NCBI GenBank assembly: GCA_965263175.1
Contig: OZ253587.1
Location: forward strand, 136,105 to 200,104
Reading direction: 5' to 3'
Source: Chloroflexota bacterium
GTDB lineage: Bacteria; Chloroflexota; UBA11872
DNA length: 64,000 nt
Positions 7,312 through 64,000 of the stretch are shown here, one piece after another. The translations under genes and the position numbers were made by a program. Position 1 is the first letter of the stretch; every line of letters starts with the position of its first letter. The notes beneath the pieces are model-generated. The model ran no database searches. It saw only the letters and a program-made list of their open reading frames with translations, and was not told where the DNA came from.

Positions 7312-7434
7312 GAGACCTTTGCACAACGCCCTTCGTCCGCGAAGGTGCGGCCCGCTCTTGCTCCCTCTCCCTGTGGGAGAGGGTTGGGGTGAGGGTCTTC
7401 CGGGCAACAGTCCCCCGGATTACGCAAAGGTCTC
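7312..7434. mobile_element. MITE-like element, full copy, about 123 bp, with TIRs GAGACCTTTGC...GCAAAGGTCTC
   Basis: Terminal inverted repeats plus an internal perfect 9-bp hairpin, CCCTCTCCC-TGT-GGGAGAGGG. The same family recurs at least six more times in the window. Confidence 0.75.
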
Positions 7435-17375: not shown

Positions 17376-17438
17376 GAGACCTTTGCCCAACGCCCCGCGT
17401 CCTCGACGGTGCGGCCCGCTCTTGCTCCCTCTCCCTGT
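17376..17438. mobile_element. MITE fragment (left half), interrupted by the IS5-family insertion
   Basis: GAGACCTTTGCCCAACGCC...CTCTTGCTCCCTCTCCCTGTG, followed directly by the IS terminal repeat. Confidence 0.65.
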
Positions 17439-18628
17439 GGAGACCTTTGCTTAACTGCGGCATGCACGGCCGAGGGGGTGAGATCGGGGCCAAACGGCGG
17501 CCAGCGGCGGCCACAACGGCCGGGCGCCGGGGGATCGTCGGGCGGTCCCGTGGGGTTCCCCCGCCGCGACGGCGCACGGATCCCACGTTAGCCACCGGCC
17601 AGCGCCTGCAAGCGGCTCGCGCGCCGCAGGTTGTAGGCCATACATTTGAACCACAGTTCCACCGCGTTCCGCGCCAGCCCCAGGTAGCGCACGGTCCGGT
17701 ACCCGTAGCTCCGCTTCAACGTCCCAAAGACGTGCTCCACCGGTGCCCGCACCTTCCCGATCAGCGCATTGCGCCGCTGCTGCCAGGAGGGCAGCCCGCG
17801 CTGGTGCTTGTGCGAGCGGTGCATGATCCGGTCGTTAATCCCCTGCGCCCGCAACCGCGCCCGCCGGGCCTTGGACTCGTAGGCCTTGTCCGCGTAGACC
17901 GCCCGCTCGTCGCCGCTGATCAACGTGTCCGCCACCTCGCTTTCGTTCACGTGCGCCGGCGTCAGCACGGCTCGCCGGATCAGCCCCGACGCCGCATCGA
18001 CCCCCAGGTGCGCCTTGTAGCCGAAGGGGGCGCGCCCACCTTTGCGCGTCCAACTCGCCTCCGGGTCGGTGGCACTGCCCGCCCCCGGCCCCTCGTCCAT
18101 CGACGGCCGCCGCGCCTGCGCCGCCACCAGCGTCGCGTCCAGGAGCGTGCCCGCCTTGACCAGCCAGCCGGCGGCGTCCACTTGCCGGGTCACCTCGGCG
18201 AACAAGCACTCGCCCAAGCCCCGGTCCGCCAGCGCGGTCCGAAAGCGGCTGATCGTCGAGTGGTCGGGCACCGGGTCCTGCAGGCCCAGCCCGACGAAGC
18301 GCCGGAACGACAGCCGGTCCCAGAGCGCCGCCTCGATCTCGGGGTCGGAGGCCTGGTACCACTGCTGCAACAGCAACACCTTCACCATCAGCAGCGGCGG
18401 ATAGCTGGGCCGCCCCTCGGGGGCGGCGTAGATGTCGCTGACCACGACCGCGAGCCGCTCCCAGTCCACGACCTCGTGGAGCTGGTCCAGCCGCGCGTTA
18501 CGGCCCACCGGCGGCGGCAACCACGCGTCCACGAACGAGGCGTCCCCTACCTGTCGATGCATGGGCCATCTCCACCAAAGTCCCGTCGTCCCCATGGTGG
18601 CCGCATAGCCCAGTTATGCAAAGGTCTC
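17439..18628. mobile_element. IS5-family insertion sequence (about 1.19 kb), copy 1
   Basis: Imperfect TIRs GGAGACCTTTGCTTAACTGCGGCATGC / GGAGACCTTTGCATAACTGGGCTATGC (the right TIR read as reverse complement). Flanked by the 6-bp direct repeat CCTGTG. Encodes one DDE transposase. Confidence 0.7.
17588..18595 (-). CDS. IS5 family DDE transposase
   Basis: N-terminus YPPLLMVKVLLLQQWYQASDPEIEAALWDRLSFRRFVGL (InsH-N/DUF772-like). C-terminus VEHVFGTLKRSYGYRTVRYLGLARN. 335 aa. Confidence 0.8.
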   Translation of the reverse strand: MGTTGLWWRWPMHRQVGDASFVDAWLPPPVGRNARLDQLHEVVDWERLAVVVSDIYAAPEGRPSYPPLLMVKVLLLQQWYQASDPEIEAALWDRLSFRRFVGLGLQDPVPDHSTISRFRTALADRGLGECLFAEVTRQVDAAGWLVKAGTLLDATLVAAQARRPSMDEGPGAGSATDPEASWTRKGGRAPFGYKAHLGVDAASGLIRRAVLTPAHVNESEVADTLISGDERAVYADKAYESKARRARLRAQGINDRIMHRSHKHQRGLPSWQQRRNALIGKVRAPVEHVFGTLKRSYGYRTVRYLGLARNAVELWFKCMAYNLRRASRLQALAGG

Positions 18629-18857
18629 CCTGTGGGAGAGCAACTGTGTGGCACGTCAAACGCCAATGGACCCTGCCGCTCTTTCTCCTTCTCCCTTGAG
18701 GGAGAAGGCTGGGATGAGGGTGGCTGCTGCCTCCAGCAACCACGCCAAATCGGCAGCAACCCGCCGCCCCTTCGCCGCCTCTTGCTCCCGCTCCCTGTGG
18801 GAGAGGGTTGGGGTGAGGGTCTTCCGGGCAACCCACACGGGGTTACGCAAAGGTCTC
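18629..18857. repeat. tandem MITE-core variants (a divergent core followed by a right-half MITE ending in GCAAAGGTCTC)
   Basis: CGCTCTTTCTCCTTCTCCCTTGAGGGAGAAGGCTGGGATGAGGG parallels the canonical core CGCTCTTGCTCCCTCTCCCTGTGGGAGAGGGTTGGGGTGAGGG. The canonical right end lies at 18776-18857. Confidence 0.55.
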
Positions 18858-21999: not shown

Positions 22000-22033
22000 G
22001 AGACCTTTGCACAACGCCCTTCGTCCGCGAAGG
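22000..22033. mobile_element. MITE left part, split by the IS1595-family insertion. The right part is at 24817-24914.
   Basis: GAGACCTTTGCACAACGCCCTTCGTCCGCGAAGG followed by the IS inverted repeat. The MITE resumes at ...CCGCGAAGGTGCGGCCC at 24817. Confidence 0.65.
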
Positions 22034-22061
22034 GGCTTATAGCGATAGCTAGCCAAACCGT

Positions 22062-22226
22062 CTAATCCGCGCGGGCCGCATCGCGCCGCGCCTGGGCCTC
22101 GCGCTCGAAGTCCCATTCGGCTTTCGGCGGCCCCTGCATAATGGCGCGCGCGATATTCTCCGGCGTGTCGGGGATTGGTTCGGGCAGCGGCTTGGGCGGG
22201 CGGCCGCGCGTGCGCTTCTTCGTCAT
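22062..22226 (-). CDS. small basic protein (54 aa) with an AT-hook-like RGRPPK motif, translationally coupled (ATGA overlap) to the methyltransferase
   Basis: MTKKRTRGRPPKPLPEPIPDTPENIARAIMQGPPKAEWDFEREAQARRDAARAD. The ATG overlaps the methyltransferase TGA. Not present in the ORF track because it is shorter than 60 aa. Confidence 0.35.
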   Translation of the reverse strand: MTKKRTRGRPPKPLPEPIPDTPENIARAIMQGPPKAEWDFEREAQARRDAARAD

Positions 22227-23782
22227 ACGAGCCTCATTTGCATCGGCTTGCCGGTGTACGGGTCGGCCATCAACGGCAAGACGGGCGGGAGCTGGTTGAA
22301 GTAGTCGGCCATGGACCAGCGTTGCATCCGCGGGTAGGCCATGCCGCCGACCTGAATCGTGCCCATGCCGGCCGTCTCGGTTCGCGCGGCGTGCGTGTCT
22401 ACGCGATCCACGGTGAGATAGCAGCCGAGGGCCGCGCGGTCACGGGCGATGACGTGGTTGAAGTCGCGCAAGTTGCCGAGGCTGAACGCGCCGCCCTTGA
22501 CTTGAGCGAGCGCGAGCCGCGTCACGTCGGCCTCGGGTTGCTCCCAGACCGTGCCCCGGCCGTCCACGCCACCATCCGCCACCTGCTTCGTATTGGGCAC
22601 AAAGCCATTAAGCCGGGTGACCGCGCAGGTCTCGAACGCGAACGGACGTTCGGCGGCCAGCTTGGATGCGCCCGCCAGGTCGTAGGGGATGCCGTAGGCG
22701 GGAATGCTTGGGTCTTGGAGCCGCCGGTCGCGGATCACGTCAATGGCAAAGGGCGAGATATCGACGCCAAGCCACGGGCGGCCCAACTTGTGCGCAGCCT
22801 CGACGGTCGTGCCGCAGCCGCAGAACGGGTCAAGCACAACGCCATCCCTTGGGCTGGACGCGGCGATCACACGCTCAAGCAATGCACGCGGTTTCTGGGT
22901 CGCGTAGCCGAGGCGCTCTTTTCCAAGAGCCACCGGGATGTCACTCCATAGATTGCTCACCGCCACGCCGTCCCATTCGTCACGGTACTGCTTGCGAAAC
23001 GGCTTGTTATTGGCGTTGTAGTGGATGCGGTTTTCGGCATGCAGGCGCTTGAGGTTGGCTCGACTGACACGCCAGCCGTGCGGCGGGTTGTGCCCGTTCC
23101 ATTCGTATTTCGGTGAGGCATGGAGACCTGCATCGCTGTACAGGTCAGCCACGGCTCGATAGACCCCTTGCTCATCGCGATGCTTGAACGGTCGCATGCC
23201 AGGCGTCTCTTTACGGACGCGCGGGATGGTCACGACGTGCTGCGGCTTGGCGTAAAACAAGACGAGGTCGGTCACCGTCCCGAACGTCCTGGTCGGACCA
23301 CGTGTGCCCTTGACGCCTGACCGCTCCCAAACGATCTGATTCCTGAAGTTCGCAGCACCGAAAATGCCATCAAGCAGGATTTTCAAGTAATGGCCTGCGG
23401 TCGGGTCACAGTGCAAGTAGAGGCCGCCCGTCGTCTTCAGCAGCCGATGGCAGTGTTCGAGCCGTTCGGCCATGTAGGTCAGGTAGCTGAGCATCCCCGA
23501 CGGCCCCAGGATGCTGTACAGGCCGACGATGGCGGCGTGCGCGGGCCGTGCGATGGCTGAACGGTAGGCGTCCATGCGTTCGGCCGCGTCCGCGTCCCAG
23601 TGCCACGTATCGGTGAAGGCGCGGTATTGCGCGCCGCCGACCGTCTTGCCAAACAGCACGTTGTAGTTCGATTGCGAGTTGAACGGCGGGTCGAGGTACA
23701 CGAGGTCCACGGTCTGATCGTCCCACTCGCGCATCCATTCCAGGCAATCGCCGTAGTACAGCGCGTTCAGCGTGGGGTGCAT
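22223..23782 (-). CDS. beta-class N6-adenine/N4-cytosine DNA methyltransferase (N6_N4_Mtase) with a C-terminal Mrr-like (PD-(D/E)xK) nuclease-type domain
   Basis: Motif IV VYLDPPFNS near the N-terminus, then motif I VLDPFCGCGTT. The C-terminus has ADGGVDGRG...(23 aa)...LAQVKGG, resembling the Mrr_cat DGGxDG...QxK signature. Confidence 0.6.
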   Translation of the reverse strand: MHPTLNALYYGDCLEWMREWDDQTVDLVYLDPPFNSQSNYNVLFGKTVGGAQYRAFTDTWHWDADAAERMDAYRSAIARPAHAAIVGLYSILGPSGMLSYLTYMAERLEHCHRLLKTTGGLYLHCDPTAGHYLKILLDGIFGAANFRNQIVWERSGVKGTRGPTRTFGTVTDLVLFYAKPQHVVTIPRVRKETPGMRPFKHRDEQGVYRAVADLYSDAGLHASPKYEWNGHNPPHGWRVSRANLKRLHAENRIHYNANNKPFRKQYRDEWDGVAVSNLWSDIPVALGKERLGYATQKPRALLERVIAASSPRDGVVLDPFCGCGTTVEAAHKLGRPWLGVDISPFAIDVIRDRRLQDPSIPAYGIPYDLAGASKLAAERPFAFETCAVTRLNGFVPNTKQVADGGVDGRGTVWEQPEADVTRLALAQVKGGAFSLGNLRDFNHVIARDRAALGCYLTVDRVDTHAARTETAGMGTIQVGGMAYPRMQRWSMADYFNQLPPVLPLMADPYTGKPMQMRLV

Positions 23783-23785
23783 GGC

Positions 23786-24730
23786 CTAGGCGATGAGGCT
23801 CGCGCCGGTGAGTTGCTTGCCCTCGAATCCCCGCACCATCGCGGTCATCTGATCGATGGTGTCGAGGCTGCGCTGGTTGTAGCGGCCCTCGAACTCGCGC
23901 ACGTAGCGATGCAAGTGCTTCGGACTCATCTTGTGGTACACGCCGTTGTGACCGCGCTTCAACAGGCTCCAGAAGCTTTCCAGGCCGTTCGTGTGGGCCT
24001 GATCGTTCACCCACTGGTGCGTGCCATGCCGGACGGTTTCGTGATAGGGCAGGCCGCGATAGGCCAGCGCTTCGTCCGTATAGACCAACGCGCCGGGGTG
24101 CGTCCGCTCGCGCACGAACGTCCGCAACGTGGGGCCGGTGGTGTTCGGTACCACGTCGGCGCTCACGCGGCCTGTGGCGCGGTCCCTGACGCCAGCGACC
24201 GGCGTCTTGCCCACGGTGCCGCCACCGGCGTAGAGCTTCTTGTCGGCGTGCTTGTTCTTCTCCAAGCCGCCCACGTACGTTTCGTCGGCTTCGACCGGGC
24301 CGGTGAACGCGGGGTTTTCGTCGCGCCAGGTCTCGCGGATGCGGTGCGCGAGACGCCAGGCCGACGTGTAGGCGATGCCGAGGTCGCGATGCAGCTTCAT
24401 GGCCGCCGTGCCCTTGATGCCGGTGGACATCAAGTAGACCGCGATGGCCCAGACCTGGTAGTCGAGATTCGAGTTGGCCATGAGCGTGTCGGTCTTGACC
24501 GAGAAGTGCTTGCGGCAGGTGCGGCAGCGAAACGGCTGTGGCTTGCGGGATTTGACATCGGCCACGTTCTCCGACTCGCAGCGGGGGCAGCGTACGCCAT
24601 CGGGCCATCGGGTCTCAACGAACCAGACTTCGGCGGCGTCATTGTCCGGGAACATCCGCGTCACGTCCAAGAGGGACAGACCCTTGCGCTCGGCTCGTCC
24701 CGGCCCCTTGCGGCTCATGTTGCGGCTCAT
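23786..24730 (-). CDS. IS1595 family (ISXO2-like) transposase
   Basis: N-terminal zinc ribbon CPRCESENV...RCRTCRKHF, then the VEADETYVGG...KNKHADKKL hallmark of DDE_Tnp_IS1595. Confidence 0.75.
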   Translation of the reverse strand: MSRNMSRKGPGRAERKGLSLLDVTRMFPDNDAAEVWFVETRWPDGVRCPRCESENVADVKSRKPQPFRCRTCRKHFSVKTDTLMANSNLDYQVWAIAVYLMSTGIKGTAAMKLHRDLGIAYTSAWRLAHRIRETWRDENPAFTGPVEADETYVGGLEKNKHADKKLYAGGGTVGKTPVAGVRDRATGRVSADVVPNTTGPTLRTFVRERTHPGALVYTDEALAYRGLPYHETVRHGTHQWVNDQAHTNGLESFWSLLKRGHNGVYHKMSPKHLHRYVREFEGRYNQRSLDTIDQMTAMVRGFEGKQLTGASLIA

Positions 24731-24816
24731 CGCTCACCCCTTCGAATTGATACACAATTCTAGCCACCACTCGAAGGGATGTCAAGGCTTTTGGCTAGCA
24801 TTCGCTATAAGCCCCT

Positions 24817-24914
24817 CCGCGAAGGTGCGGCCCGCTCTTGCTCCCTCTCCCTGTGGGAGAGGGTTGGGGTGAGGGTCTTCCGGGCAACAGTCCCTCGGGT
24901 TACGCAAAGGTCTC
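24817..24914. mobile_element. MITE right part (continuation of the 22000-22033 fragment)
   Basis: ...GCGAAGGTGCGGCCCGCTCTTGCTCCCTCTCCCTGTGGGAGAGGGTTGGGGTGAGGGTCTTCC...GCAAAGGTCTC. Confidence 0.65.
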
Positions 24915-25028
24915 TACCTAGCGGCAGATTCCATGCCCAAGTCTGGTAGAGTTCTATTCTGTCCACGCAAATTGCCAGCCAACCATTGGCATCGCAGCCC
25001 GGCGGCAGCGACGGAGGAACGAGGAATA

Positions 25029-26954
25029 GTGTCAACATTTAAAGCGAATGCGTTCCTACTCAAGAATATTCTTGACAATGTTGCCAACGGTAGCATCCAA
25101 CTCCCCGACTTCCAGCGCGGCTGGGTGTGGGACGACGACCGAATAAAGGACCTGCTGGTCAGCATTTCGCGCGGCTTCCCTATCGGTGCCGTGATGACTC
25201 TCGATGCCGGTGGGGACTTGCGGTTTCGAAGCCGCTTAGTCGAGGGCGTGGATTCGAATGGCGACGATCAAGCATCCGAATACCTGCTGGATGGCCAACA
25301 GCGTCTTACGTCGCTGTACCAGGCGCTGCGGTATGAAGGGCCGGTAGAAACCCGCCACCGACCTGGTGGAAGATGGGTCATCAAGCGATGGTATTACATC
25401 GATATGCAAAAGATTCTGAATCCCCTGATCGATCTGGAGGACACCGTCGTTAGCGTTCCTGAAGACCGAGTTGTCAGGTCAAATTTCGGCCGTGATATCA
25501 CTTTGGATCTGTCCTCGTCTGACTTCGAATTCAAGCATCATATGCTGCCCACCGAGAAAGTCATGAATATCATGGATTGGATGCTTGGATACCTTGGTTA
25601 TTGGAAGGATCGCGGCGAGCATCCGGAGGGTGACCCGGTTGCTTTCTTCACCCAGTTCAAGGCTGCCGTGCTGGACAACTTCACCGACTACCAGTTGCCG
25701 GTCATCAGCCTTGGAAAAGGGACGTCCAAGGAGGCTGTTTGCACGGTCTTCGAAAAGGTCAACACCGGCGGCGTAACTTTGAATGTGTTCGAGTTGGTGA
25801 CCGCCGCCTTCGCTGCGGAAGTGGGCGAGGACGATTTCTCGCTGCGGGACGACTGGGAAGCGCGAAGCAGGCGGCTACACTCGGAATTCGGCGTGCTTCA
25901 AGGCGTCGGCGCTGATCAATTCCTGCAAACGGTGACACTGCTGGCGACCCAAGCACGGCGCAGGCGAGCTACTTCTGAGACTCCGTCGAGTCAACTTCCC
26001 GGTATCGGCTGTAGGCGAGCAGACATCCTCAACCTGACGTTCAGCGACTACCAGACATGGGCCGACCGAGTGGAAGAGGGATTCAGGGTCGCCGCAAAGT
26101 ACCTGCGCGGCCAATTCGTTTTCACCAGGTACAACGTGCCTTACAACACCCAACTGGTTCCCCTGGCAGCGTTGTACGTTGAGTTGGGCAAGGAGTTGGC
26201 GCCCGCCAACGCGCAGGATAAGCTGAACCGCTGGTTCTGGTGCGGCATCTTCAGCGAAGCCTATGGCGGCGGCGGTGAGACTCAGTTTGCTCGTGACCTC
26301 GAACAGGTTGCCAACTACATCCGAGGCGGCGCCGAACCGGAACTTGTTAGCCAGGCGAGCTTTGTTCCCGAGCGGCTGTTGTCGTTGAGAACACGCAACA
26401 GCTCTGCCTACAAGGGTCTGTACGCGCTGCAAATGAAAAGCAACGCGGCTGACTGGCGCAGCGATGGACCCTTGACCTTCGCCACCATCCATGACGAGAA
26501 CATCGATATCCACCATATTTTCCCGGTCGCCTGGTGCAGGCATGCCGATCCGGAGGTGCCAAGACACCTGTACGACTCGGTAATCAACAAGACGCCGATT
26601 GACGCGCAGACGAACCGAATCATCGGTGGTAAGGCGCCGTCCATCTACTTACCCCGCTTGCGCCGTCGTGATATCGGCGAAGAAAAATTGAATCGAATTC
26701 TTGAATCGCATTGGATCGATCCCAAGCTGCTTGAGAGTGATCTTTTTGGCGACTGCTTCGTCGAGCGCGGTCAAGCAATGCTCGACTTGATCAACCGCAC
26801 GATGGGTAAGCCAGCCGTCGATGGGCGTCAGGTCTTTCGCGATGCGCTGGACTCCGCCGGTCTGGCTGAGCAGGACAGCGATGACGAGGTTGAGTACGAT
26901 CCCATCGGCGACAGCGCCTTTGGCGACGAGACACTGGGCGGCGACAATTCATAA
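25029..26954 (+). CDS. GmrSD-like type IV restriction endonuclease candidate (N-terminal DUF262, C-terminal DUF1524/HNH-like)
   Basis: N-terminus LPDFQRGWVWDDDRIKDLLVSI...DGQQRLTSLY (DUF262 DGQQR motif). C-terminus DIHHIFPVAW (DUF1524 His-Me finger). GTG at 25029 with a GGAGGAA RBS. The upstream ATG at 24933 is an alternative start. Confidence 0.65.
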   Translation: MSTFKANAFLLKNILDNVANGSIQLPDFQRGWVWDDDRIKDLLVSISRGFPIGAVMTLDAGGDLRFRSRLVEGVDSNGDDQASEYLLDGQQRLTSLYQALRYEGPVETRHRPGGRWVIKRWYYIDMQKILNPLIDLEDTVVSVPEDRVVRSNFGRDITLDLSSSDFEFKHHMLPTEKVMNIMDWMLGYLGYWKDRGEHPEGDPVAFFTQFKAAVLDNFTDYQLPVISLGKGTSKEAVCTVFEKVNTGGVTLNVFELVTAAFAAEVGEDDFSLRDDWEARSRRLHSEFGVLQGVGADQFLQTVTLLATQARRRRATSETPSSQLPGIGCRRADILNLTFSDYQTWADRVEEGFRVAAKYLRGQFVFTRYNVPYNTQLVPLAALYVELGKELAPANAQDKLNRWFWCGIFSEAYGGGGETQFARDLEQVANYIRGGAEPELVSQASFVPERLLSLRTRNSSAYKGLYALQMKSNAADWRSDGPLTFATIHDENIDIHHIFPVAWCRHADPEVPRHLYDSVINKTPIDAQTNRIIGGKAPSIYLPRLRRRDIGEEKLNRILESHWIDPKLLESDLFGDCFVERGQAMLDLINRTMGKPAVDGRQVFRDALDSAGLAEQDSDDEVEYDPIGDSAFGDETLGGDNS

Positions 26955-28253: not shown

Positions 28254-28375
28254 GAGACCTTTGCACAACGCCCTTCGTCCGCGAAGGTGCGGCCGCTCTT
28301 GCTCCCTCTCCTCGGGGAGAGGGTTGGGGTGAGGGGTCTTCCGGGCAACAGTCCCTCGGGTTACGCAAAGGTCTC
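28254..28375. mobile_element. MITE-like element, full copy
   Basis: GAGACCTTTGCACAACGCCC...GGGTTACGCAAAGGTCTC. Same family as 7312-7434. Confidence 0.75.
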
Positions 28376-41099: not shown

Positions 41100-42291
41100 G
41101 AGACCTTTGCAAAACCCTGGCGTGAGGTGGATCGTGGAGACCATCGTTCCCGCCGCCGAGAGTCGTGGCCATGCACCGTTCCACCCATTCGCCGGAACTG
41201 ATCGACGCCTGGCTGCCGCCGCGGGTGGGCCGCAACGCCCGGCTGGAGCGGCTGACGCAGCTCATCGACTGGGCGCCGCTGGAGGCGCTGGTGGCGGACC
41301 TGCACGCCGCGCCGGTCGGGCGGCCGAGTTATCCGCCGCTGCTGATGGTCAAGGTGCTGCTGCTCCAGCAGTGGTATCAGGCCTCGGACCCGGCGATGGA
41401 AGAGGCGTTGTGGGAGCGGCTGTCGTTCCGGCGCTTCGTGGGGTTGGGGCTGCAGGACGACGCGCCCGATCACTCGACGATCAGCCGCTTCCGCACGCGG
41501 CTGACGGCGGCGGGCGTGGCCGAGCCGCTGTTCGCGGCGGTGGAGCAGCAACTGGCCGCGCGCGGGCTGCTGGTCATGCAGGGCACGCTGGTGGACGCGA
41601 CGTTGGTGGACGCGCAGGTGCGCCGCCCGCAAGGGGGCGCCACCGGCGCGGGCAGCCCCCGGGACCCGGACGCGGCCTGGGCCCGGCGGGGCCGGCAGGC
41701 GCGCTTTGGCTACAAGCTGCACCTGGGGGTGGACGCCGAGTCGGAACTGGTCCGGCGCGCGGTGCTGACCCCGGCGAACGTGAACGAGACCCAGGTGGCG
41801 GACGAGCTGATCGCGGGGGACGAAGGGGCGGTGTACGGGGATGCGGCCTATGGCACGCACGCGCGCAGCGCCCGGCTGCGGGCGCGGGGGATCGCGGATC
41901 GGCTGATGCGACGGCCCACCAAACATCAGCCCCGGCTGGGCCCGGCGGCGCGCCGCCGCCACGCCCGGATCGAACAGGTGCGACGGCCGGTGGAGCACGT
42001 GTTTGGGACGTTGAAGCGCTCGTACGGCTACCAGCGGGTGCGCTACCGGGGCCTGGCCCGGAACACGACCGAGATGTGGTTCAAGCTGCTGGCCTACAAC
42101 CTGCGCCGCGCGGACCGCTTGCTGGCCGGGGCCCCGACCTCGCCCTAGGCGCGCTGCGCCCTCAACCAGGCGCGCAGGCCTGCGGGCAGGCCCCGGCGAG
42201 CGGCGACCCAGGCTGCCCCACCCCGCGCCACCCTCTCGCGGGTCGGGCGTCGCCCCTCGGCGCTGCGCAGGGCGCATTATTCAAAGGTCTC
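41100..42291. mobile_element. IS5-family insertion sequence, copy 2 (divergent from copy 1)
   Basis: TIRs GAGACCTTTGCAAAACCC... / ...TTCAAAGGTCTC. Flanked by the 6-bp direct repeat TCGTCA. About 1.19 kb. Confidence 0.65.
41165..42148 (+). CDS. IS5 family DDE transposase
   Basis: YPPLLMVKVLLLQQWYQASDPAMEEALWERLSFRRFVGL and VEHVFGTLKRSYGYQRVRYRGLARN. 327 aa. About 75% identical to the copy-1 transposase. Confidence 0.8.
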   Translation: MAMHRSTHSPELIDAWLPPRVGRNARLERLTQLIDWAPLEALVADLHAAPVGRPSYPPLLMVKVLLLQQWYQASDPAMEEALWERLSFRRFVGLGLQDDAPDHSTISRFRTRLTAAGVAEPLFAAVEQQLAARGLLVMQGTLVDATLVDAQVRRPQGGATGAGSPRDPDAAWARRGRQARFGYKLHLGVDAESELVRRAVLTPANVNETQVADELIAGDEGAVYGDAAYGTHARSARLRARGIADRLMRRPTKHQPRLGPAARRRHARIEQVRRPVEHVFGTLKRSYGYQRVRYRGLARNTTEMWFKLLAYNLRRADRLLAGAPTSP

Positions 42292-42294
42292 TCG

Positions 42295-44127
42295 TCAGGC
42301 AGATGACGGTGCCACTTCCTCGTAGCACTCTCGGTCCAAGCAGTCAATTAAGGGCGTGTGCGCGTTGGCGCAGCAGACGATCGAAAGCGAACGGCTGGAG
42401 CGCGTGATTGCCACGTAGAGCTGCGCGCGTTGCCGGTCGATCGGGAATCTCTCAGCCACGGGGTCAAGCAGGTACACCGACGCGAAGTCCAGCCCTTTCG
42501 CGGAGTGCACCGTGGCCAACGCTACAGAGGCACCGTCCGGCGGAGCGTTGCGGTCCACCACTCGCACGGGTACACCTGCCCGCTCCAGGGCTACCCTCGC
42601 CTCGTCGCGCTGCGGGTTCGAACCCGTCAGCACTGCAATCTGGCTGACAGGCCGTCCCGCCTCAATCTCCGCGAGTACCGACTCGACCACGAACGCCAGG
42701 GCTCGAGGCCCCTCAGCGCACCTAGCCAGCCGCGGCAGCGGGCCTTCGCGCTTAGGCGTTGACAACTCTTCAACGTCGCGGCGTACCTCGTCGACGTCTG
42801 CGTAGATTGAGGCGGCCAGGGCGTGAAGCTGACGGGTCGAGCGGTAGGGCTCGCGCAAGACGTGGGTCCGACCTCTACGCGACCCGAATTCGGGGGCAGC
42901 CCACCGGTAGCGTCCGGCGTAGAGCGCCTGTGCCGGGTCAGCCAGCACCAGAAGCCGCGTCTCAGCCCCAGCCACAAGCGCCTTGGCCAGCCGGGCCATC
43001 ACCGGCGAGCAGTCCTGACCCTCGTCGACAATCACGTCACGGTAGCGAGGCGGATTCGGATCCTTCGCAATCGCGGCGCGCGCCCGTTCGATTAGGTCAT
43101 TCCAACTGTCCTGCGCGTCCCTCCGGTGCCGGATCCGCTGATAGAGCGCCCAGACCGCCCGGCGTTGAGGCTTGAACAGACGCACCAACCCCTCACTCTC
43201 CGGCCTATTGAGGTCAAGGTAGGGCTGTACCTCGTCGAACTGGTTGGGGCCAAGGACATCGCTAATCTCTGTGAAGAGATCGTCCTCCGCGAGCCTCTCG
43301 AGCGCGCGGCGGTCGGCATCCGGCAGCTGCCGCACTTCCTGGGCTAGCACTGTGCGGAGCCAGCGGTCATACACAGCCGGATTTGCCGAGTAGCTGTCTA
43401 CACGCCGTCGAAGGTACCGCCCAGCCCAGCCGTGGAAGGTGTTTACCTCGATCTGCCGCGACCTCTCGGGTGGGGCGAGCGTTCTGATTGCTTCTCGCAC
43501 GGTGCGCATAAGCACTCGGTTGAAGCAGAGATACAGCACGCGTCCGTCTTCAAAGCCTGGCAGCAGGCTCTGGCGCAGCGCTCGGTGGATTGCGATCGAA
43601 GTCTTGCCAGTGCCTGCGCCAGCCGTGACGAAGGACAGCTTCGTTTGGTTGGTTTTGCTCGCGTCAAAGGTGACTAGGAAACGCTGTGCCTCATCGAGGG
43701 CCGCGAAGTAATGCTGGTACCCGCGTGCCGCCAGCGCACCCAATTTGTCTGGCTCCGTTATCGGGGTAGGGTCCTGCGAGGCAACGCTTGGAACCGGCTC
43801 GTGTCGCTGAAGAACCTTGCTGCGCCTAGGAATCTCCTGAAGGTGCCTATCCTTCCACGCGTAGGCCTCGTCGTGTTTGCCGACCCAAAGAAGCACGACT
43901 CGATTCTCAGTCTTGGCAAAGACCAGCCGATACTCCTTCGTGACCCGGGCTGAACGCACCTCCAGGCCGCAGTCGAACCGATGCAGCAGCTCGTCGTTTA
44001 GTCCGGCGCGCTTGTCACCCGCTACAAGGCGACGCGCGACCATGAGCGTTTGGTTTTCGAAGCGGCCGCTTAGTCTGTTGAGCGCATCAGAGAAGTCGTG
44101 TCCGCGCCAAAGTTCAAAGTCCGCCAT
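42295..44127 (-). CDS. UvrD/Rep-like SF1 helicase with N-terminal RelE/ParE-like domain
   Basis: N-terminus RVTKEYRLVFAKTENRVVLLWVGKHDEAY (RelE/ParE fold signature). Walker A TAGAGTGKTSIA, Walker B VIVDEGQDCS, motif VI VHSAKGLDFASVYLL. A GGGAGG RBS is present. Confidence 0.6.
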   Translation of the reverse strand: MADFELWRGHDFSDALNRLSGRFENQTLMVARRLVAGDKRAGLNDELLHRFDCGLEVRSARVTKEYRLVFAKTENRVVLLWVGKHDEAYAWKDRHLQEIPRRSKVLQRHEPVPSVASQDPTPITEPDKLGALAARGYQHYFAALDEAQRFLVTFDASKTNQTKLSFVTAGAGTGKTSIAIHRALRQSLLPGFEDGRVLYLCFNRVLMRTVREAIRTLAPPERSRQIEVNTFHGWAGRYLRRRVDSYSANPAVYDRWLRTVLAQEVRQLPDADRRALERLAEDDLFTEISDVLGPNQFDEVQPYLDLNRPESEGLVRLFKPQRRAVWALYQRIRHRRDAQDSWNDLIERARAAIAKDPNPPRYRDVIVDEGQDCSPVMARLAKALVAGAETRLLVLADPAQALYAGRYRWAAPEFGSRRGRTHVLREPYRSTRQLHALAASIYADVDEVRRDVEELSTPKREGPLPRLARCAEGPRALAFVVESVLAEIEAGRPVSQIAVLTGSNPQRDEARVALERAGVPVRVVDRNAPPDGASVALATVHSAKGLDFASVYLLDPVAERFPIDRQRAQLYVAITRSSRSLSIVCCANAHTPLIDCLDRECYEEVAPSSA

Positions 44128-47037: not shown

Positions 47038-47739
47038 TTGCCTATGGGCTTTGCCAACGCCGTCCGCCAACTCCGCGAGCAGCGTCGCCTCACCAAGGCG
47101 GCGCTCGCTGTGCGTTGCGGACTGGCCCCCTCGTACCTCTCCCGGCTCGAAAGCGGCGACTACAAGAGTCCAACCGTCGCCACCCTGGTAACGCTGGCCC
47201 ATGGCCTGGAAGTTGACCCGCGCGACCTGTTGGTGCTGGCGGGCTACGTGCCGGACGACATGGCCAGCACTCGCCGGCGGTTCGCCGAAGAGACCATTGC
47301 CAGCGTGGCGGAATCAGCCATTCGCTCCATCTCGCGCACGGTCAGCGCCACGCTCAACCCCGACCAGGATGACAGCGACGACGAGCCGCTGAATGTGGAC
47401 CGGGCGCTGCTGGCGGAACGGTTGCGCACGCACCGCCGCACGGCACGTCGAACGACCCGGCAAGTCGCGCGGCAAGCCGGTGTGCGCGTGAGCGTGATCA
47501 CCGACGTCGAGGCGGGCCGCGAACTCTCCACGCCGGTCGACTTGGCACAAGTGCTCACCCGCGGCTACGCCCTGGCGACGGCTGAGGTGGACGATTTGCT
47601 ATTCGAGGTTGGACTCAGCCAGTACCTGGCCGACGACATCGTCCTGTCGTCCGAGTCGCGGCGGATGACCCTCGAGTTCGCGCGCCTGGCGCGGATTCGC
47701 GACCGCCACAGCCGCCAGGGTCCCGGCCTGATCGACTAA
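47038..47739 (+). CDS. transcriptional regulator with two XRE-family HTH domains
   Basis: LTKAALAVRCGLAPSYLSRLESGD and RRTTRQVARQAGVRVSVITDVEAGRE. Confidence 0.55.
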   Translation: MPMGFANAVRQLREQRRLTKAALAVRCGLAPSYLSRLESGDYKSPTVATLVTLAHGLEVDPRDLLVLAGYVPDDMASTRRRFAEETIASVAESAIRSISRTVSATLNPDQDDSDDEPLNVDRALLAERLRTHRRTARRTTRQVARQAGVRVSVITDVEAGRELSTPVDLAQVLTRGYALATAEVDDLLFEVGLSQYLADDIVLSSESRRMTLEFARLARIRDRHSRQGPGLID

Positions 47740-59906: not shown

Positions 59907-60703
59907 GACGCCGGAACGCGCGCCCGCAGGTAGTCCAGCGCCAGCCCGGCCTGGGCCGGGAAGTCGGTGAACCGCTTGCCGTTGTCCTCCACGCTCATCC
60001 GCAGGTCATAGCCTGTGGCCAGCAGGGCGTCCAGAAAGTCGTCGAACCCCGGGTCGGTCGGCTGCGCCGGCGCGTCGGGAATGGGAGGCACGGGCACGTG
60101 GATGTGACGCAAGCGCGGGGCGACTTCGGCCAGGGTTTCCAGCGGCTCGTCGTTGTGGAAGACGTGGAACCAGTCGGCCAGCGTCCACACGCGCGGCTGC
60201 CCGCTCTGGCGGGCGGCCGCGAAGCCTTCGACGATGGTGTTGATCGTGTCGCACACGTCGCGCCAGAGCGGTTCGATCACCAGGTCCATGTCGTGATTGG
60301 CGGCGATCTCGCCCGCCAGCAGCAGGAAGTCCTGCAACTGTCCGGGGACCAGGTGGTGGTCAAACCCCGGCGGCGTGGAGCGAGCGCCGCCGCTCCCAAA
60401 CACCACCAGCCGGGTCCCCAGGTCGCGCATGCGGCCCATGGCCGTGGTTACGTAGGCGCGCAGACCATCCAGGTCGCGCGCCGGTCCCACCACCGGATGG
60501 TGGGGCGGGATGAACACGTTCAGGGCCTCGGGCGGCAGACCGGCGTCCTCGATCCGGCGCTTGATCGGGGCGTAGACGGTCTCGTCGTCGTCGGGCCGGA
60601 GGTCCACCACGCGCAGCTCGGCGTAGTCATAGCCGGCCGCGCGCATGGCCGGCATGTTCTCGATCGGTCCGCAGCAGCCGAATCGCATAGGGCGCGTATC
60701 CAT
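59903..60703 (-). CDS. sugar phosphate isomerase/epimerase (xylose isomerase-like TIM barrel)
   Basis: MRFGCCGPIENMPAMRAAGYDYAEL matches the AP_endonuc_2 family pattern. Confidence 0.6.
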   Translation of the reverse strand: MDTRPMRFGCCGPIENMPAMRAAGYDYAELRVVDLRPDDDETVYAPIKRRIEDAGLPPEALNVFIPPHHPVVGPARDLDGLRAYVTTAMGRMRDLGTRLVVFGSGGARSTPPGFDHHLVPGQLQDFLLLAGEIAANHDMDLVIEPLWRDVCDTINTIVEGFAAARQSGQPRVWTLADWFHVFHNDEPLETLAEVAPRLRHIHVPVPPIPDAPAQPTDPGFDDFLDALLATGYDLRMSVEDNGKRFTDFPAQAGLALDYLRARVPAS

Positions 60704-60765
60704 CCTCAGGCTGGGCTGCCCGGCATGGTACGCGAGCGCCCACCCGAACCAGGGGTAGCCGCCGA

Positions 60766-61446
60766 ATGACCTACGACGACCAAGGCGAATTGCTGGAGGT
60801 CGTCACGCCCGACGGCCGCGCGACCGGGCGCCTGCTGCCTCGCGGACAGATTCACCGCGAGGGCCACTGGCACCGCACGCGCACCGTCTGGGTCGTCCTG
60901 ACCGGCGAGCCGGACGGCCCGGCCCTGCTGCTCCAGCAGCGCGGGTTCACCAAGGACACCTGGGGCGGGCTGCTGGACGTCAGCAGCGCCGGCCACCTGG
61001 CGCCTGACGACCCCGACCCGTGGCGCGAACTGGAGGAGGAGCTAGGCGTACGGCCCACGCAGGGACCGCTGATCCAACTGGGCACCCGCCGCGTGGAAGG
61101 CGCTCATCCGCGCGACGGCCTGGTGGACCGCGAGTTGCAGGACCTGTGGCTCTGGCTGGCGCCGCTCGCGCTCGACGGATTGCGACCAGCGCGCGGGGAG
61201 ATCGAGGCCCTGCTCAGCCTGGACCTGGCGGTCGTGCCGGATCTGGAGCGTCCCGACGCACGCACACCCGCCCGGCGGCTGGACGCGGTGACGCGCACGG
61301 TTGAGCCGGCGGTCGTGACGTTGCCCGAGTTGACGCCCGGCCTTGGCCCGTATGCGGTGCATGTGGCGCGGCTGTCGTATCGCGCCCTGGCGGGTGAGCG
61401 AGAGTTGCGCTACGACCCGCGTTACGACATCCGCGCCGAAACCTGA
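60766..61446 (+). CDS. NUDIX hydrolase
   Basis: NUDIX box GHLAPDDPDPWRELEEELGV (GX5EX7REUXEEXGU). Confidence 0.65.
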   Translation: MTYDDQGELLEVVTPDGRATGRLLPRGQIHREGHWHRTRTVWVVLTGEPDGPALLLQQRGFTKDTWGGLLDVSSAGHLAPDDPDPWRELEEELGVRPTQGPLIQLGTRRVEGAHPRDGLVDRELQDLWLWLAPLALDGLRPARGEIEALLSLDLAVVPDLERPDARTPARRLDAVTRTVEPAVVTLPELTPGLGPYAVHVARLSYRALAGERELRYDPRYDIRAET

Positions 61447-61484
61447 CGGGCCGGGCCGCTTTTGGCGACCCGGCCCGCTGGGGA

Positions 61485-61593
61485 GAGACCTTTGCGTAAC
61501 CCGGGGGCGGTTGCCCGGAAGACCCTCACCCACAGGGAGAGGGAGCAAGAGCCGCCGCACCTTCGAGGACGCGGGGCGATTTGCAAAGGTCTC
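61485..61593. mobile_element. MITE-like element (shorter variant, 109 bp, opposite orientation)
   Basis: GAGACCTTTGCGTAACCCGGGGG...GCAAAGGTCTC. The paralogous locus at about 63725 lacks it (empty site). Confidence 0.75.
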
Positions 61594-61614
61594 TGGGGAG
61601 GGAGGGGATGTGGA

Positions 61615-62553
61615 TTAGCGAATGGTGATATTGCTCACACCGGCTTCGATCTTGATCGTCACGCGGTTGGCGGCGCTTTCGAAGTCGGGCGAGACGTATT
61701 GGCCGTTGTCCTGCTCCGGGAAGCGCGACTCGTCGATGTCCATGCTGGACACCCCGCCGTCGAAGTCGATCTGCGCCGCGACGCCCGGCGGAACCATGAT
61801 GTCCAGGTCCGCCGCCCCGATGCTGAAGTCAGCGCTCGTACGCCCGGCGTTGGCGGGCAGCACTACGCTGATGTCCGCGGCGCCCGCTTCGACGTTCAGG
61901 CTCTGCACGTTCAACTCCCGCAGGTCCAAATCGAAGGTCGATGCTCCGCCTTCGATACGTATATCGGACGGGATGCCCTCGGCGTGACGCAACGCCCAGC
62001 GTGGCGACGAGCTGGTGCGGCGCGGCGGGAACTGGAAGCTCCAGTCGGCGTTGAGGCGCAGGTCCACCGTGCGCCGGCCGTCCGCGGTGCTCACGCTCAA
62101 GCGCTGGTCCGTCACTTCGGTCAGGGGCGCCTGGGATCCGCCGGCCAGCAGCACGCCCGGCGGGGCGCCGCCCGTGAGCGAGAGGTCGCCGGCGGCCAAC
62201 GTGAGGTTCAGGCGCGCCGACCGCGCACCGTCGCTCGGCACCCAGATCGACTTGTTCCCGATTGTCAGGCTTGGCGGCGGCGAGGGGTCGGCCACTGCCA
62301 ACACCCAGGCCGCGGCCAGTGAGCCCGTCACGACCGCCAGCGCGGCCAGCGAGCCGATCCAGGCGCGCTGGCGGGACAGCACCAGGTTTACGCCCACGGC
62401 CACCAGCAGCAGCGGCCACAGCGTCCAGAACTCGCCCCAGAACCCGTCGGGCAACACTTCCAGGTTCCAGAGGAGCCCGAACACGCCGAGCAGGATCAGG
62501 CCGCCGGCGAATCCGAAGCCGTGCTGCCGGGTCAATGTCCTTGATCCGTTCAT
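61615..62553 (-). CDS. DUF4097/LiaF-like cell-envelope stress protein
   Basis: N-terminal TM helices followed by a beta-rich repeat domain (ADISVVLPANAG...IDFDGGVSSMDIDES...VTIKIEAGVSNITIR). Start at the MNGSRTL Met. Confidence 0.5.
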   Translation of the reverse strand: MNGSRTLTRQHGFGFAGGLILLGVFGLLWNLEVLPDGFWGEFWTLWPLLLVAVGVNLVLSRQRAWIGSLAALAVVTGSLAAAWVLAVADPSPPPSLTIGNKSIWVPSDGARSARLNLTLAAGDLSLTGGAPPGVLLAGGSQAPLTEVTDQRLSVSTADGRRTVDLRLNADWSFQFPPRRTSSSPRWALRHAEGIPSDIRIEGGASTFDLDLRELNVQSLNVEAGAADISVVLPANAGRTSADFSIGAADLDIMVPPGVAAQIDFDGGVSSMDIDESRFPEQDNGQYVSPDFESAANRVTIKIEAGVSNITIR

Positions 62554-62780
62554 TGCGGCCCCCTGGCGTGCCCGACGTACCTGACGATCATCACCAGGCC
62601 GATCCCAATCAGAATCACAGGCCACAGCTCTCGGAACTCGAACCAGCCGAACTGGTCCACCAGGAAGATGGCGCCGATCAAAATCAGCGTGGCGCCGCCC
62701 ACCAATGCGCCGTCGCCGCGTCGCCGCCTGCGACGGCGGCGAGCCGGGCCCGAACCGGCCTGGGTGTCGTTACCTGTCAT
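62550..62780 (-). CDS. small membrane protein (76 aa) sharing a C-terminal TM module with the PspC-domain protein
   Basis: ALVGGATLILIGAIFLVDQFGWFEFRELWPVILIGIG compared with ALVIGSVLIVMGALALVDQFSLLSFWQFWPLILIGIG. Confidence 0.45.
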   Translation of the reverse strand: MTGNDTQAGSGPARRRRRRRRGDGALVGGATLILIGAIFLVDQFGWFEFRELWPVILIGIGLVMIVRYVGHARGPQ

Positions 62781-62789
62781 CGCAGCCTC

Positions 62790-63410
62790 CTAGCGAATGC
62801 GGCCAAGGATCAGCGCGCCGCCGATCCCGATCAGAATGAGGGGCCAGAACTGCCAGAAGCTGAGCAGGCTGAACTGGTCCACCAGGGCCAGCGCGCCCAT
62901 CACGATCAGGACGGACCCGATAACCAACGCGCCCCGGCCGCGCCGCCGCGCCGCCGCTCGCCGCCGCCGCGCCCGGCGGGATCCGGCGCGCCTGCGCTGC
63001 CTCGGGGCCGCCGCCGGTGGGGCGTCGGGGCTGGAGGTGCTCGATGCGGCCGCGGCCGTGGCCGTAGCGCCGTCGGGCTTGGGCTCATCCTCGGCGTCAG
63101 CCTCGTCCTGACTTTCGTCCGTGGTCTGGCTGTCCGATTCGTCCCCGGCCTGGGCATCAGCCTCGTCGTCGGCTAACTCGTCGTCTTCGTACTCGTCTTC
63201 GTCCTCGTACGCATCCTCGCCGTCGGGCGGCGACGGCATGATGATCGCCATCACGAAGTAGGCGACGAGCAGCAGACCGCCAGTGAAGAGCGCGCCCAGT
63301 ACCCAGAGCAGCCGGATGATGACCGGATCGATGTCGAAGTACTCCGCCATCCCGCCGGCCACGCCCGTTAGCATCCGGTCCGTGTGGCTGCGGGTCAGCC
63401 GCTGATCCAT
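62790..63410 (-). CDS. PspC domain-containing membrane protein with acidic low-complexity linker
   Basis: MDQRLTRSHTDRMLTGVAGGMAEYFDIDPVIIRLLWV (PspC N-terminal domain). A D/E-rich stretch. A C-terminal TM module. Confidence 0.55.
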   Translation of the reverse strand: MDQRLTRSHTDRMLTGVAGGMAEYFDIDPVIIRLLWVLGALFTGGLLLVAYFVMAIIMPSPPDGEDAYEDEDEYEDDELADDEADAQAGDESDSQTTDESQDEADAEDEPKPDGATATAAAASSTSSPDAPPAAAPRQRRRAGSRRARRRRAAARRRGRGALVIGSVLIVMGALALVDQFSLLSFWQFWPLILIGIGGALILGRIR

Positions 63411-63599
63411 GACAAGGCCTTTCCGCGGTTGTGTCTGACTTGCAACGCCACGGTATGCCGTGAGCGCCCCGCCGCCATCGCCCCAAGGCCCTATTTTTAG
63501 CTCGTGGACTCGGCCAAAAGGACTAGAGGTGTTGGGCCGCGTGGCCACTCGGCGAATCGAGTCGCGTCGCTGCGCCTGCGCGTGTTCCCGGCGCAGGCC

Positions 63600-63711
63600 G
63601 GGTCCAGGGCGACGGCTGACCCCCGCCCTCGGCCCCTGCGCGGCGCACATGGCGCGGCTGGCCCTGACGGGCGCACGCGCACTCCGCTACGACCTGCGCG
63701 CCGAAACCTGA
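63600..63711 (+). pseudogene. duplicated, diverged 3' fragment of the NUDIX gene
   Basis: ...ARLALTGARALRYDLRAET* compared with ...ARLSYRALAGERELRYDPRYDIRAET*. The downstream intergenic sequence is also duplicated. Confidence 0.45.
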
Positions 63712-63775
63712 CGGGCCGGACCGCCGTCGGCGACCCGGCCCGCTGGGGGAGGGAAGGGAACGAGGATTAGCGAAC

Positions 63776-64000
63776 TACGATGTCACTGACGCCCGCGTCG
63801 ATCGTGATCGCCACGCGGTTGGCGGCGCTCGCGAAGCCTGGGGAGATGTAGCGGCCATCGCTTTGCCGGGGAAACCGCGACTCGTCGATCGTCACGCTGG
63901 ACACGCCGCCCTCGAAGGCGATCAGCGCCGCGACGCCGGGCGGAAGCGTGATCTCCAGGCTGGCGGCCCCGACATTGAAGTCGGCGTCTATGTGCCCGGC
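63776..64000 (-). CDS. second LiaF/DUF4097-like paralogue (partial, runs off the window)
   Basis: The C-terminus ...VAITIDAGVSDIVVR* parallels ...VTIKIEAGVSNITIR* of the 61615 gene. Confidence 0.45.

Follow-up and report, generated by a model that had tools for sequence, protein, structure and literature searches.

A tandem duplication in an uncultured Chloroflexota lineage and a later MITE insertion where a NUDIX gene converges with a LiaF-like gene

We analyzed the right-hand end of a 64-kb stretch of DNA from an uncultured Chloroflexota lineage (64,000 nucleotides, hereafter the window), where a NUDIX hydrolase gene and a cassette of membrane-protein genes are separated by a spacer that is present in two copies, and where a 109-bp MITE (a miniature transposable element with inverted repeats) occupies only the first of them. 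The region 60400-64000 was read directly and its open reading frames (ORFs) were listed. The NUDIX gene (60766-61446, + strand; Pfam NUDIX, 32.9 bits against a cutoff of 21.1) is syntenic in every relative examined. It is convergent with a three-gene cassette on the - strand, which encodes a PspC-domain membrane protein (62790-63413; Pfam PspC, 77.8 bits), a 76-aa LiaI-LiaF-like transmembrane protein (62550-62780; Pfam PF18917, 40.6 bits), and a 312-aa LiaF-like protein (61615-62553; Pfam LiaF-TM, identical to protein P0092) with a C-terminal part of the toast-rack type. By analogy, the cassette would be of the envelope-stress type: it has the PspC, LiaI-LiaF-like transmembrane, and LiaF-TM domains in common with PspC/LiaF-type envelope-stress cassettes, and homologs of the 312-aa protein carry the Toast_rack_N domain (PF17115), whereas LiaRS two-component genes were not seen adjoining it. 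Within the cassette, the 76-aa protein (62586-62727) resembles the PspC protein in the membrane segment at the C-terminus of the latter (62808-62949) with 70% DNA identity, which is an older internal duplication.

Two homologous units, adjacent and in direct orientation, were detected by a repeat finder and by a BLAST comparison of 60700-62700 with 62800-64000. Positions 61331-61483 match 63617-63748 with 72.5% identity and two gaps (E-value of 8.5e-21), including an ungapped core with 89% identity (61420-61483 and 63685-63748), and positions 61595-61848 correspond to 63746-64000, where 61595-61834 match 63746-63986 with 77% identity (E-value of 1.4e-49). The two matching blocks are offset by 113 nt, the alignment being broken exactly around 61484-61594, and copy 2 has no other match anywhere in the window. 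The first part of copy 2 is a non-functional remnant of the NUDIX 3' tail (63617-63711, + strand), about 72-77% identical to the tail in copy 1 and 78-79% identical to the tails of two related loci, L001 and L002; its reading frame ends with ...ALRYDLRAET* at position 63711. Beyond the spacer lies the 3' end of a second LiaF-like gene (63767-64000, - strand), which comprises 77 codons and the stop codon and runs off the window. Its translation is the C-terminus of the 308-aa protein P0043, whose last 77 residues are exactly those encoded at 63767-64000. P0043 is 60% identical to the first LiaF-like protein over 98% of the length of the latter, and both P0092 and P0043 are recorded on a 3,783,076-bp contig. 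These matches support copy 2 as a real full-length paralog, with homology that would continue past position 64000 at the protein level. An initial annotation of this DNA had proposed a local segmental duplication, starting at 61370, of the NUDIX 3' end, the following intergenic DNA, and a LiaF/DUF4097-like gene, had noted a diverged NUDIX tail ending with ...LRYDLRAET* in the second copy, and had allowed for a downstream copy that proves unrelated past the end of the window. The duplication and the diverged tail were confirmed, and the relationship does extend, at the protein level, past the short stretch contained in the window. The start of the first copy has to be moved about 40 nt to the left, to near 61331, and the LiaF part of the gene label is reasonable, whereas the first LiaF-like protein of the window has no Pfam match to DUF4097 at E<0.01. 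The duplication also proved to have a preserved junction, and to be old and partly decayed rather than fresh.

The junction was located by comparison with the single-copy relatives L123, L124, L126, L127, and L130, in which the PspC gene is followed by about 210 nt of intergenic DNA and then by a divergent pseudouridine-synthase gene with S4 and PseudoU_synth_2 domains. The window is colinear with these five loci over 63414-63608, the right end of unit 1, which contains the PspC upstream region and then, at about 63563-63608 on the + strand, what is left of the pseudouridine-synthase gene, namely its first ~14 codons (its start reads V/LRLHVFLARAGAGS in the relatives and LRLRVFPAQAGSRA in the window). 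Within the next ~8 nt (63609-63616) the homology changes from the pseudouridine-synthase start to the NUDIX tail. A fragment of the far end of the unit is thus fused to a fragment of its near end, and 63609-63616 is therefore the join point of a tandem duplication, a novel junction between a pseudouridine-synthase 5' fragment and a NUDIX 3' fragment. The duplicated unit runs from about 61331 to about 63608, that is, from ~115 nt before the NUDIX stop codon, the last ~115 nt of that gene being part of unit 1, to ~45 nt into the pseudouridine-synthase gene, and measures roughly 2.16 kb without the MITE. In the relatives L125 and L001, the DNA upstream of a second LiaF-like gene matches the 5' end of PspC and the PspC upstream region. 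This remnant indicates that the second unit was once complete, and that the small-protein gene and most of PspC have since been lost. The remnants at 63563-63711 should not be annotated as genes. As in other bacterial tandem duplications with a join point, decay, and gene conversion, the repeats in the window are direct and adjacent, the far end is joined to the near end, relatives show loss or reversion, and divergence is uneven along the repeat. The locus differs from the unstable, near-identical amplifications that are usually studied in that the duplication is old, with ~75% DNA and 60% protein identity, and its second unit is without two of the three cassette genes.

The MITE occupies positions 61485-61593, as defined by the alignment break and its tips, and lies in reverse orientation (- strand) relative to two other copies in the window, which start at 7312 and 28254. 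It has perfect 11-bp terminal inverted repeats, starting with GAGACCTTTGC and ending with GCAAAGGTCTC, and its predicted fold is a long hairpin (-54 to -56 kcal/mol). On both sides it is flanked by the 6-bp target-site duplication TGGGGA, read directly at 61479-61484 and 61594-61599. The insertion point within the copy 1 spacer, itself 53 nt long, follows the LiaF-like stop codon by 15 nt and borders a GC-rich hairpin of the host, and the insertion would make the 3' untranslated region of the cassette transcript 115 nt longer. A promoter/terminator scan found neither a promoter-like site nor a terminator within the MITE. The spot is typical of a low-cost landing site, and we claim no function for the element. 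Neither this element nor the 122-123 bp copies can encode a transposase, all being too short, and the ORFs that overlap them were assigned to no protein family. An Rfam match to the sbcD RNA was also observed on the - strand at 61439-61536, covering the host hairpin and part of the MITE; at 27.3 bits against a gathering score of 40 (E-value of 0.014) it is below threshold, and an sbcD identity was rejected as a chance match.

To examine the same site in other genomes, we scanned a genome collection with a 23-mer common to both copies, which identified two syntenic loci in Chloroflexota metagenome-assembled genomes (L001 and L002, about 82% identical to the window). Ten further loci, L123-L132, were obtained by a protein search with the first LiaF-like protein followed by contig look-ups; the closest relative, L123, is about 91% identical to the window over 3.8 kb. 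In all 12 orthologous loci, 54-60 nt separate the NUDIX gene from the LiaF-like gene, and this spacer contains the sequence ...CCCGGCCCGCTGGGGGAGGG... once and uninterrupted (...CCCGGCCCGCGGGGGAGGGG... in L127-L129), and all alignments of the relatives to the window break at 61483/61595. Copy 2 of the window itself, whose spacer falls in the same 54-60 nt range, provides a paralogous empty site, a single CGCTGGGGGAGGG at 63743-63752, identified by direct reading and alignment. The filled site at 61485 is thus an insertion polymorphism against one paralogous and 12 orthologous empty sites. Since the element is missing from all 12 orthologous sites, even that of the 91%-identical L123, the insertion is best interpreted from these alignments as a gain on the window's own branch. 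The duplication predates the split from the ~82%-identical relatives, whereas a 91%-identical relative is without the MITE; an insertion after the duplication is therefore well supported, and the MITE is younger than the duplication whichever history of the duplication holds. We also searched ~120 kb of the 12 related loci for the terminal repeat common to the MITE and its insertion sequence (IS) partners and found no match, compared with 15 matches in the 64-kb window. The terminal-repeat family may be limited to the window genome or may have expanded greatly there, or the window may be an island rich in mobile elements. The initial annotation had deduced from the two copies alone that the second has the same intergenic DNA without the 109-bp element, that the element is flanked by a 6-bp TGGGGA duplication, that it was inserted after the duplication, and that it is or recently was mobile. 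The empty site, with an alignment break exactly at the element, and the order of events now stand on the orthologous sites as well. TGGGGA is indeed present on both sides, with a discrepancy of one G relative to all empty sites that is considered below. Past mobility is confirmed, though not necessarily current mobility, and "recent" is not well supported, the copy at 61485 being the most diverged of the five in the window (82% identical to the copy at 7312, with a 14-bp internal deletion).

A search of the window with the 11-nt tip gave 15 matches, against 1.1 expected by chance. These delimit three intact short elements (7312-7434, 28254-28375, and 61485-61593), two interrupted ones (17376...18857 and 22000...24914), and two elements of ~1.19 kb; a single-mismatch match at 47290 has no partner tip and marks no element. 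The copies at 7312-7434 (123 bp) and 28254-28375 (122 bp, target duplication TATTGT), found by tip search and alignment, lie on the + strand. The two longer elements have the terminal 11 nt of the MITE, with one mismatch in the second. One, 17440-18628 (1189 bp, - strand, target duplication CCTGTG), is nested in the MITE copy 17376-18857; the other is 41100-42291 (1192 bp, + strand, target duplication TCGTCA). Each encodes a single DDE transposase, at 17588-18595 and 41165-42148, respectively, assigned to the IS5 family by NCBIfam IS5_4 (NF033581) with 299.5 and 285.5 bits, respectively, against a cutoff of 140, and each transposase carries Pfam DUF772 and DDE_Tnp_1; the IS1182 model scored below its own cutoff. 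The two elements are two different IS species, because they are only about 75% identical. Perfect 6-bp duplications flank the MITE copies at 28254 and 61485 and both IS elements. From the same 11-nt tips and the same 6-bp duplication, the partner of the MITE is inferred to be an IS5-family DDE transposase acting in trans, with 17440-18628 as a candidate source, and the family of the 61485 element qualifies as a MITE family that has a candidate autonomous partner.

Several further observations were made on the elements of the window. An extra segment of ~130 bp is present in the MITE copy 17376-18857 at about 18641-18770, and in it the core motif is found a second time, in diverged form, at 18700-18720. 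The other interrupted copy contains, at 22024-24823, a ~2.78-kb element (22032-24815) with the inverted ends GGGGCTTATAGCG.../...CGCTATAAGCCCC and the 8-bp target duplication TCCGCGAA; it encodes an IS1595-family transposase (23786-24730, 175 bits) and a 519-aa DNA-methyltransferase-like ORF (22223-23782), an apparent passenger. Large ORFs at 24933-26954 and 42295-44127 adjoin mobile elements, one of them with P-loop and helicase-like motifs by eye, and they may be defense-related genes.

The terminal repeat has known relatives. That of ISNme1, an IS5-family element of Neisseria meningitidis, is GAGACCTTTGCAAAA/TTTTGCAAAGGTCTC (Klein et al., 2015; PMC4596501, Table 2), and the terminal repeat of the IS elements and MITEs in the window is identical to it. 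From its terminal repeats, ISNme1 was proposed as the parent element of the Neisseria MITE ATR, and in Porphyromonas gingivalis the tips of BrickBuilt copies 4 and 5 are GAGACCTTTGCA, with near-identical tips in BrickBuilt and ISPg1 (PMC4596501). The MITE of the window shares the GAGACCTTTGC.../...GCAAAGGTCTC terminal repeat with ATR, BrickBuilt, and MITEPgRS (PMC4596501), and like them it is small, non-coding, multicopy, and intergenic, with only its termini in common with full-length IS5-family elements of the same genome. It differs from them in its unrelated interior, in the GC-rich uncultured Chloroflexota host, and in having no internal minisatellite. The IS partners, at ~1.19 kb with a single DDE transposase and GAGACC-type tips, are likewise similar to other members of the IS5 family (NCBIfam transpos_IS5_4; E. 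coli IS5, ISNme1, and ISPg1).

A metagenome scan for two tips separated by 85-115 nt (tip-N(85-115)-tip) returned at least 120 stretches (loci L003-L122) with terminal repeats of 11-16 nt. The matches listed fall into at least about 30 clusters with unrelated interiors and a GC content of 29-67%. Among the 115 listed elements with both flanks, a perfect duplication of 5 bp was found in 49, of 6 bp in 4, and of 7 bp in 4, together 57 of 115, compared with 1 of 115 (4 bp or more) in a control with mismatched flanks. The 6-bp duplication of the window thus contrasts with mostly 5 bp in the listed metagenome copies and a variable length in BrickBuilt. Only two GC-rich elements among the matches listed, L005 and L117, share the core of the window family, a hairpin followed by GGGGTGAGGG. 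The 61485 element belongs to a widespread and known kind, MITEs with an ISNme1-type IS5-family terminal repeat. The core module, CTCCCTCTCCC-loop-GGGAGAGGG(T/C)TGGGGTGAGGG, was observed at 7352-7395, 24832-24875, and 28293-28335 of the window and also in L005 and L117, which are otherwise different from the window family.

The spacer of each unit contains a hairpin. The GC-rich hairpin of copy 1 (61447-61477), between the NUDIX and LiaF-like stop codons, folds at -31.8 kcal/mol on the + strand and -34.7 kcal/mol on the - strand (z of -4.0 and -5.5) and is 96% conserved in the relatives. In copy 2, where the intergenic segment is 87% identical to that of copy 1, the stem is kept (63712-63742; -30.3 and -31.7 kcal/mol). 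A simple promoter/terminator scan called neither hairpin as a terminator, because neither has a T-tract. Both are presumed to be bidirectional terminators or stabilizers of the 3' ends of the convergent transcripts.

The history of the duplication was assessed by comparing both gene copies among the relatives. A second LiaF-like gene is present in five of them (L125, L001, L002, L131, and L132), each time without the junction and at 142-147 nt from PspC; seven of the 12 are single-copy, and the junction is retained only in the window genome. A neighbor-joining tree of the 3.8-kb flanking block gave the topology ((L124,(window,L123)),(L125,(L001,L002))). The N-terminal ~60% of P0043 has the N-terminal 3-residue gap and the diagnostic motifs common to the other second-copy proteins, some of these states (around ...SRY..WAGS...) being found also in the more distant homolog P0052, in which the N-terminal gap is one residue shorter. 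The part of P0043 encoded by the 5' part of the gene is without the residues common to all first-copy proteins, and is therefore old. An origin of the second gene of the window as an independent recent copy of the first was rejected, given the missing first-copy residues and the shared second-copy states and gap. The C-terminal part of P0043 is slightly nearer to first copies than to second copies (0.68 vs 0.63). The NUDIX-tail remnant carries the motif GCGCGGCTG, which is typical of the window's clade, and joins close to the middle of the path that connects the window with its relatives, with 10 sites unique to copy 1 and 7 common to copies 1 and 2.

The obtained results are best explained by an old tandem duplication that decayed and was followed by the insertion of the MITE in the window lineage, a reading to which we assign a probability of about 85%. 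In the ancestor, a ~2.2-kb unit would have been duplicated once in tandem, creating the junction, the second hairpin, and the second LiaF-like gene. The second unit would then have decayed, with lineages diverging in the outcome: some kept it, some trimmed it, and some reverted. A single deletion would have removed the junction in the clade of L125, L001, and L002, whereas in the window's clade repeated reversion to a single copy may have occurred by recombination between the duplicated PspC-start and upstream segments. In the window lineage itself, gene conversion may have limited the divergence of the junction, of the hairpin, and of the gene's 3' half relative to its 5' half. The duplication is old, partly decayed, and probably affected by gene conversion. 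Later in the same lineage, the 109-bp MITE would have been inserted into the copy 1 spacer with a 6-bp duplication of TGGGGA, presumably moved in trans by an IS5-family transposase.

Several observations weigh against this reading. With regard to the duplication, the window's nearest relatives (L123, L126, L130, L124, and L127) are all single-copy, so that a single ancient origin needs several independent losses. The fragments at the junction are ~77% identical to their parents, which is more than would be expected of neutral DNA whose age equals that of the divergence between the 5' halves. The bootstrap 95% interval of the C-terminal identity difference is -0.014 to 0.116, and the support for gene conversion is marginal. 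With regard to the insertion, the paralogous and all 12 orthologous empty sites (CGCTGGGGGAGGG) have a run of five G, compared with four in each TGGGGA flank, and a clean 6-bp duplication needs four; this is a discrepancy of one base with every empty site. A contraction of the G run by one base before the insertion is the simplest reading; the alternative of a 111-bp element with a 3-bp duplication was rejected, as it demands an extra A/T that is absent from the other copies. A perfect target duplication is missing or degenerate at three of the seven elements (7312, 17376/18857, and 22000/24914). Nothing but the ~11-15 nt tips is common to the MITE and the IS elements, and the latter are only 75% identical to each other. 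Finally, the IS5 group typically produces a 4-bp target duplication, and the 6 bp at the MITE and at both IS partners is unusual and differs from that subgroup, although the assignment of the partners to the IS5 family stands.

An alternative history, less likely than not, is that the second unit of the window, or its junction together with the 3' half of the second gene, stems from a separate and more recent event in the window's lineage, either a re-duplication combined with recombination with an older second LiaF-like gene, or an import from another lineage. Such an event would agree with the shared 142-147 nt spacer without a junction in all five other second-copy genomes, the single-copy state of all close relatives, the clade-typical GCGCGGCTG motif in the NUDIX-tail remnant, and a second gene that is like other second copies in its 5' part and nearer to first copies in its 3' part. 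It requires three or more steps, however, and no donor was identified. The remnant was dated by site counts, the unrooted four-taxon tree being the same under both scenarios, and its position near the midpoint of the path (10 vs 7 sites) fits an age similar to that of the lineage split.

The element is very unlikely to be a host repeat, such as a repetitive extragenic palindrome (REP)-like sequence or a small structured RNA gene, instead of a transposon derivative. Its strong fold, the recurrence of the hairpin and GGGGTGAGGG core outside a MITE context at 18700-18720, and the sub-threshold sbcD match of 27.3 bits would be in line with such a repeat. Yet two IS5-family elements of the window have termini identical to its own and the same 6-bp flanking duplications, its presence is polymorphic against 13 empty sites, and the Rfam match, under the gathering score of 40, covers the host hairpin and only part of the element. 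Still less probable is a MITE that is older than the duplication, or that both copies carried at one time, and that left copy 2 by precise excision, making the empty site a secondary loss by which the insertion is not dated. DDE transposons can excise, and gene conversion between the copies, if it occurred, could erase an insertion; but the element is missing from 12 orthologous copy 1 sites, one of them in a ~91%-identical genome, CGCTGGGGGAGGG is unbroken and has no footprint, and parsimony favors one gain, on the branch of the window itself. Convergent or shared terminator sequence beside old paralogs, as the source of the similarity between the two intergenic segments, has a negligible chance of being correct and is refuted by the anatomy of the junction, as the hairpin may be the best-conserved part (87-96%) and presumably functional, but function cannot explain a non-coding ~95 nt copy of the NUDIX tail (E-value of 8.5e-21) and the pseudouridine-synthase start fused to it.

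More tentatively, the tandem duplication and the element family can be combined in a broader interpretation, which we consider rather doubtful. At least ~30 MITE families from different phyla, unrelated in their interiors, would form one pool defined by the GAGACCTTTGC tip and served by ISNme1-like IS5 transposases, and the hairpin and GGGGTGAGGG core would be a recurrent functional cargo of its GC-rich families, such as a portable terminator or RNA-stabilizing module, while the junction in the window would have been kept by ongoing gene conversion between the units. If this is true, the locus is a natural record of concerted evolution in a duplicate that other lineages resolved in three ways.

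What the present analysis adds to the initial annotation is the set of empty sites in orthologous loci, the exact position of the junction, a second copy of full length, and the element family with its candidate partner, together with the caveat that neither the duplication nor the MITE copy at 61485 is recent. The locus is a well-documented case of a MITE inserted in an uncultured Chloroflexota lineage, for which one paralogous empty site and many orthologous ones are available. Comparison of the filled with the empty sites fixes the ends of the element, the target duplication, and the order of events relative to one another. Many unrelated MITE families across environmental bacteria use the ISNme1-type IS5 terminal repeat that is known from Neisseria and Porphyromonas. 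From the preserved join point one can reconstruct how a tandem duplication was kept, trimmed, or reverted in different relatives. Taken together, the locus illustrates bacterial genome dynamics cleanly but in an ordinary way and leaves current understanding unchanged, and it is useful for annotation and as a worked case of the decay of a duplication.

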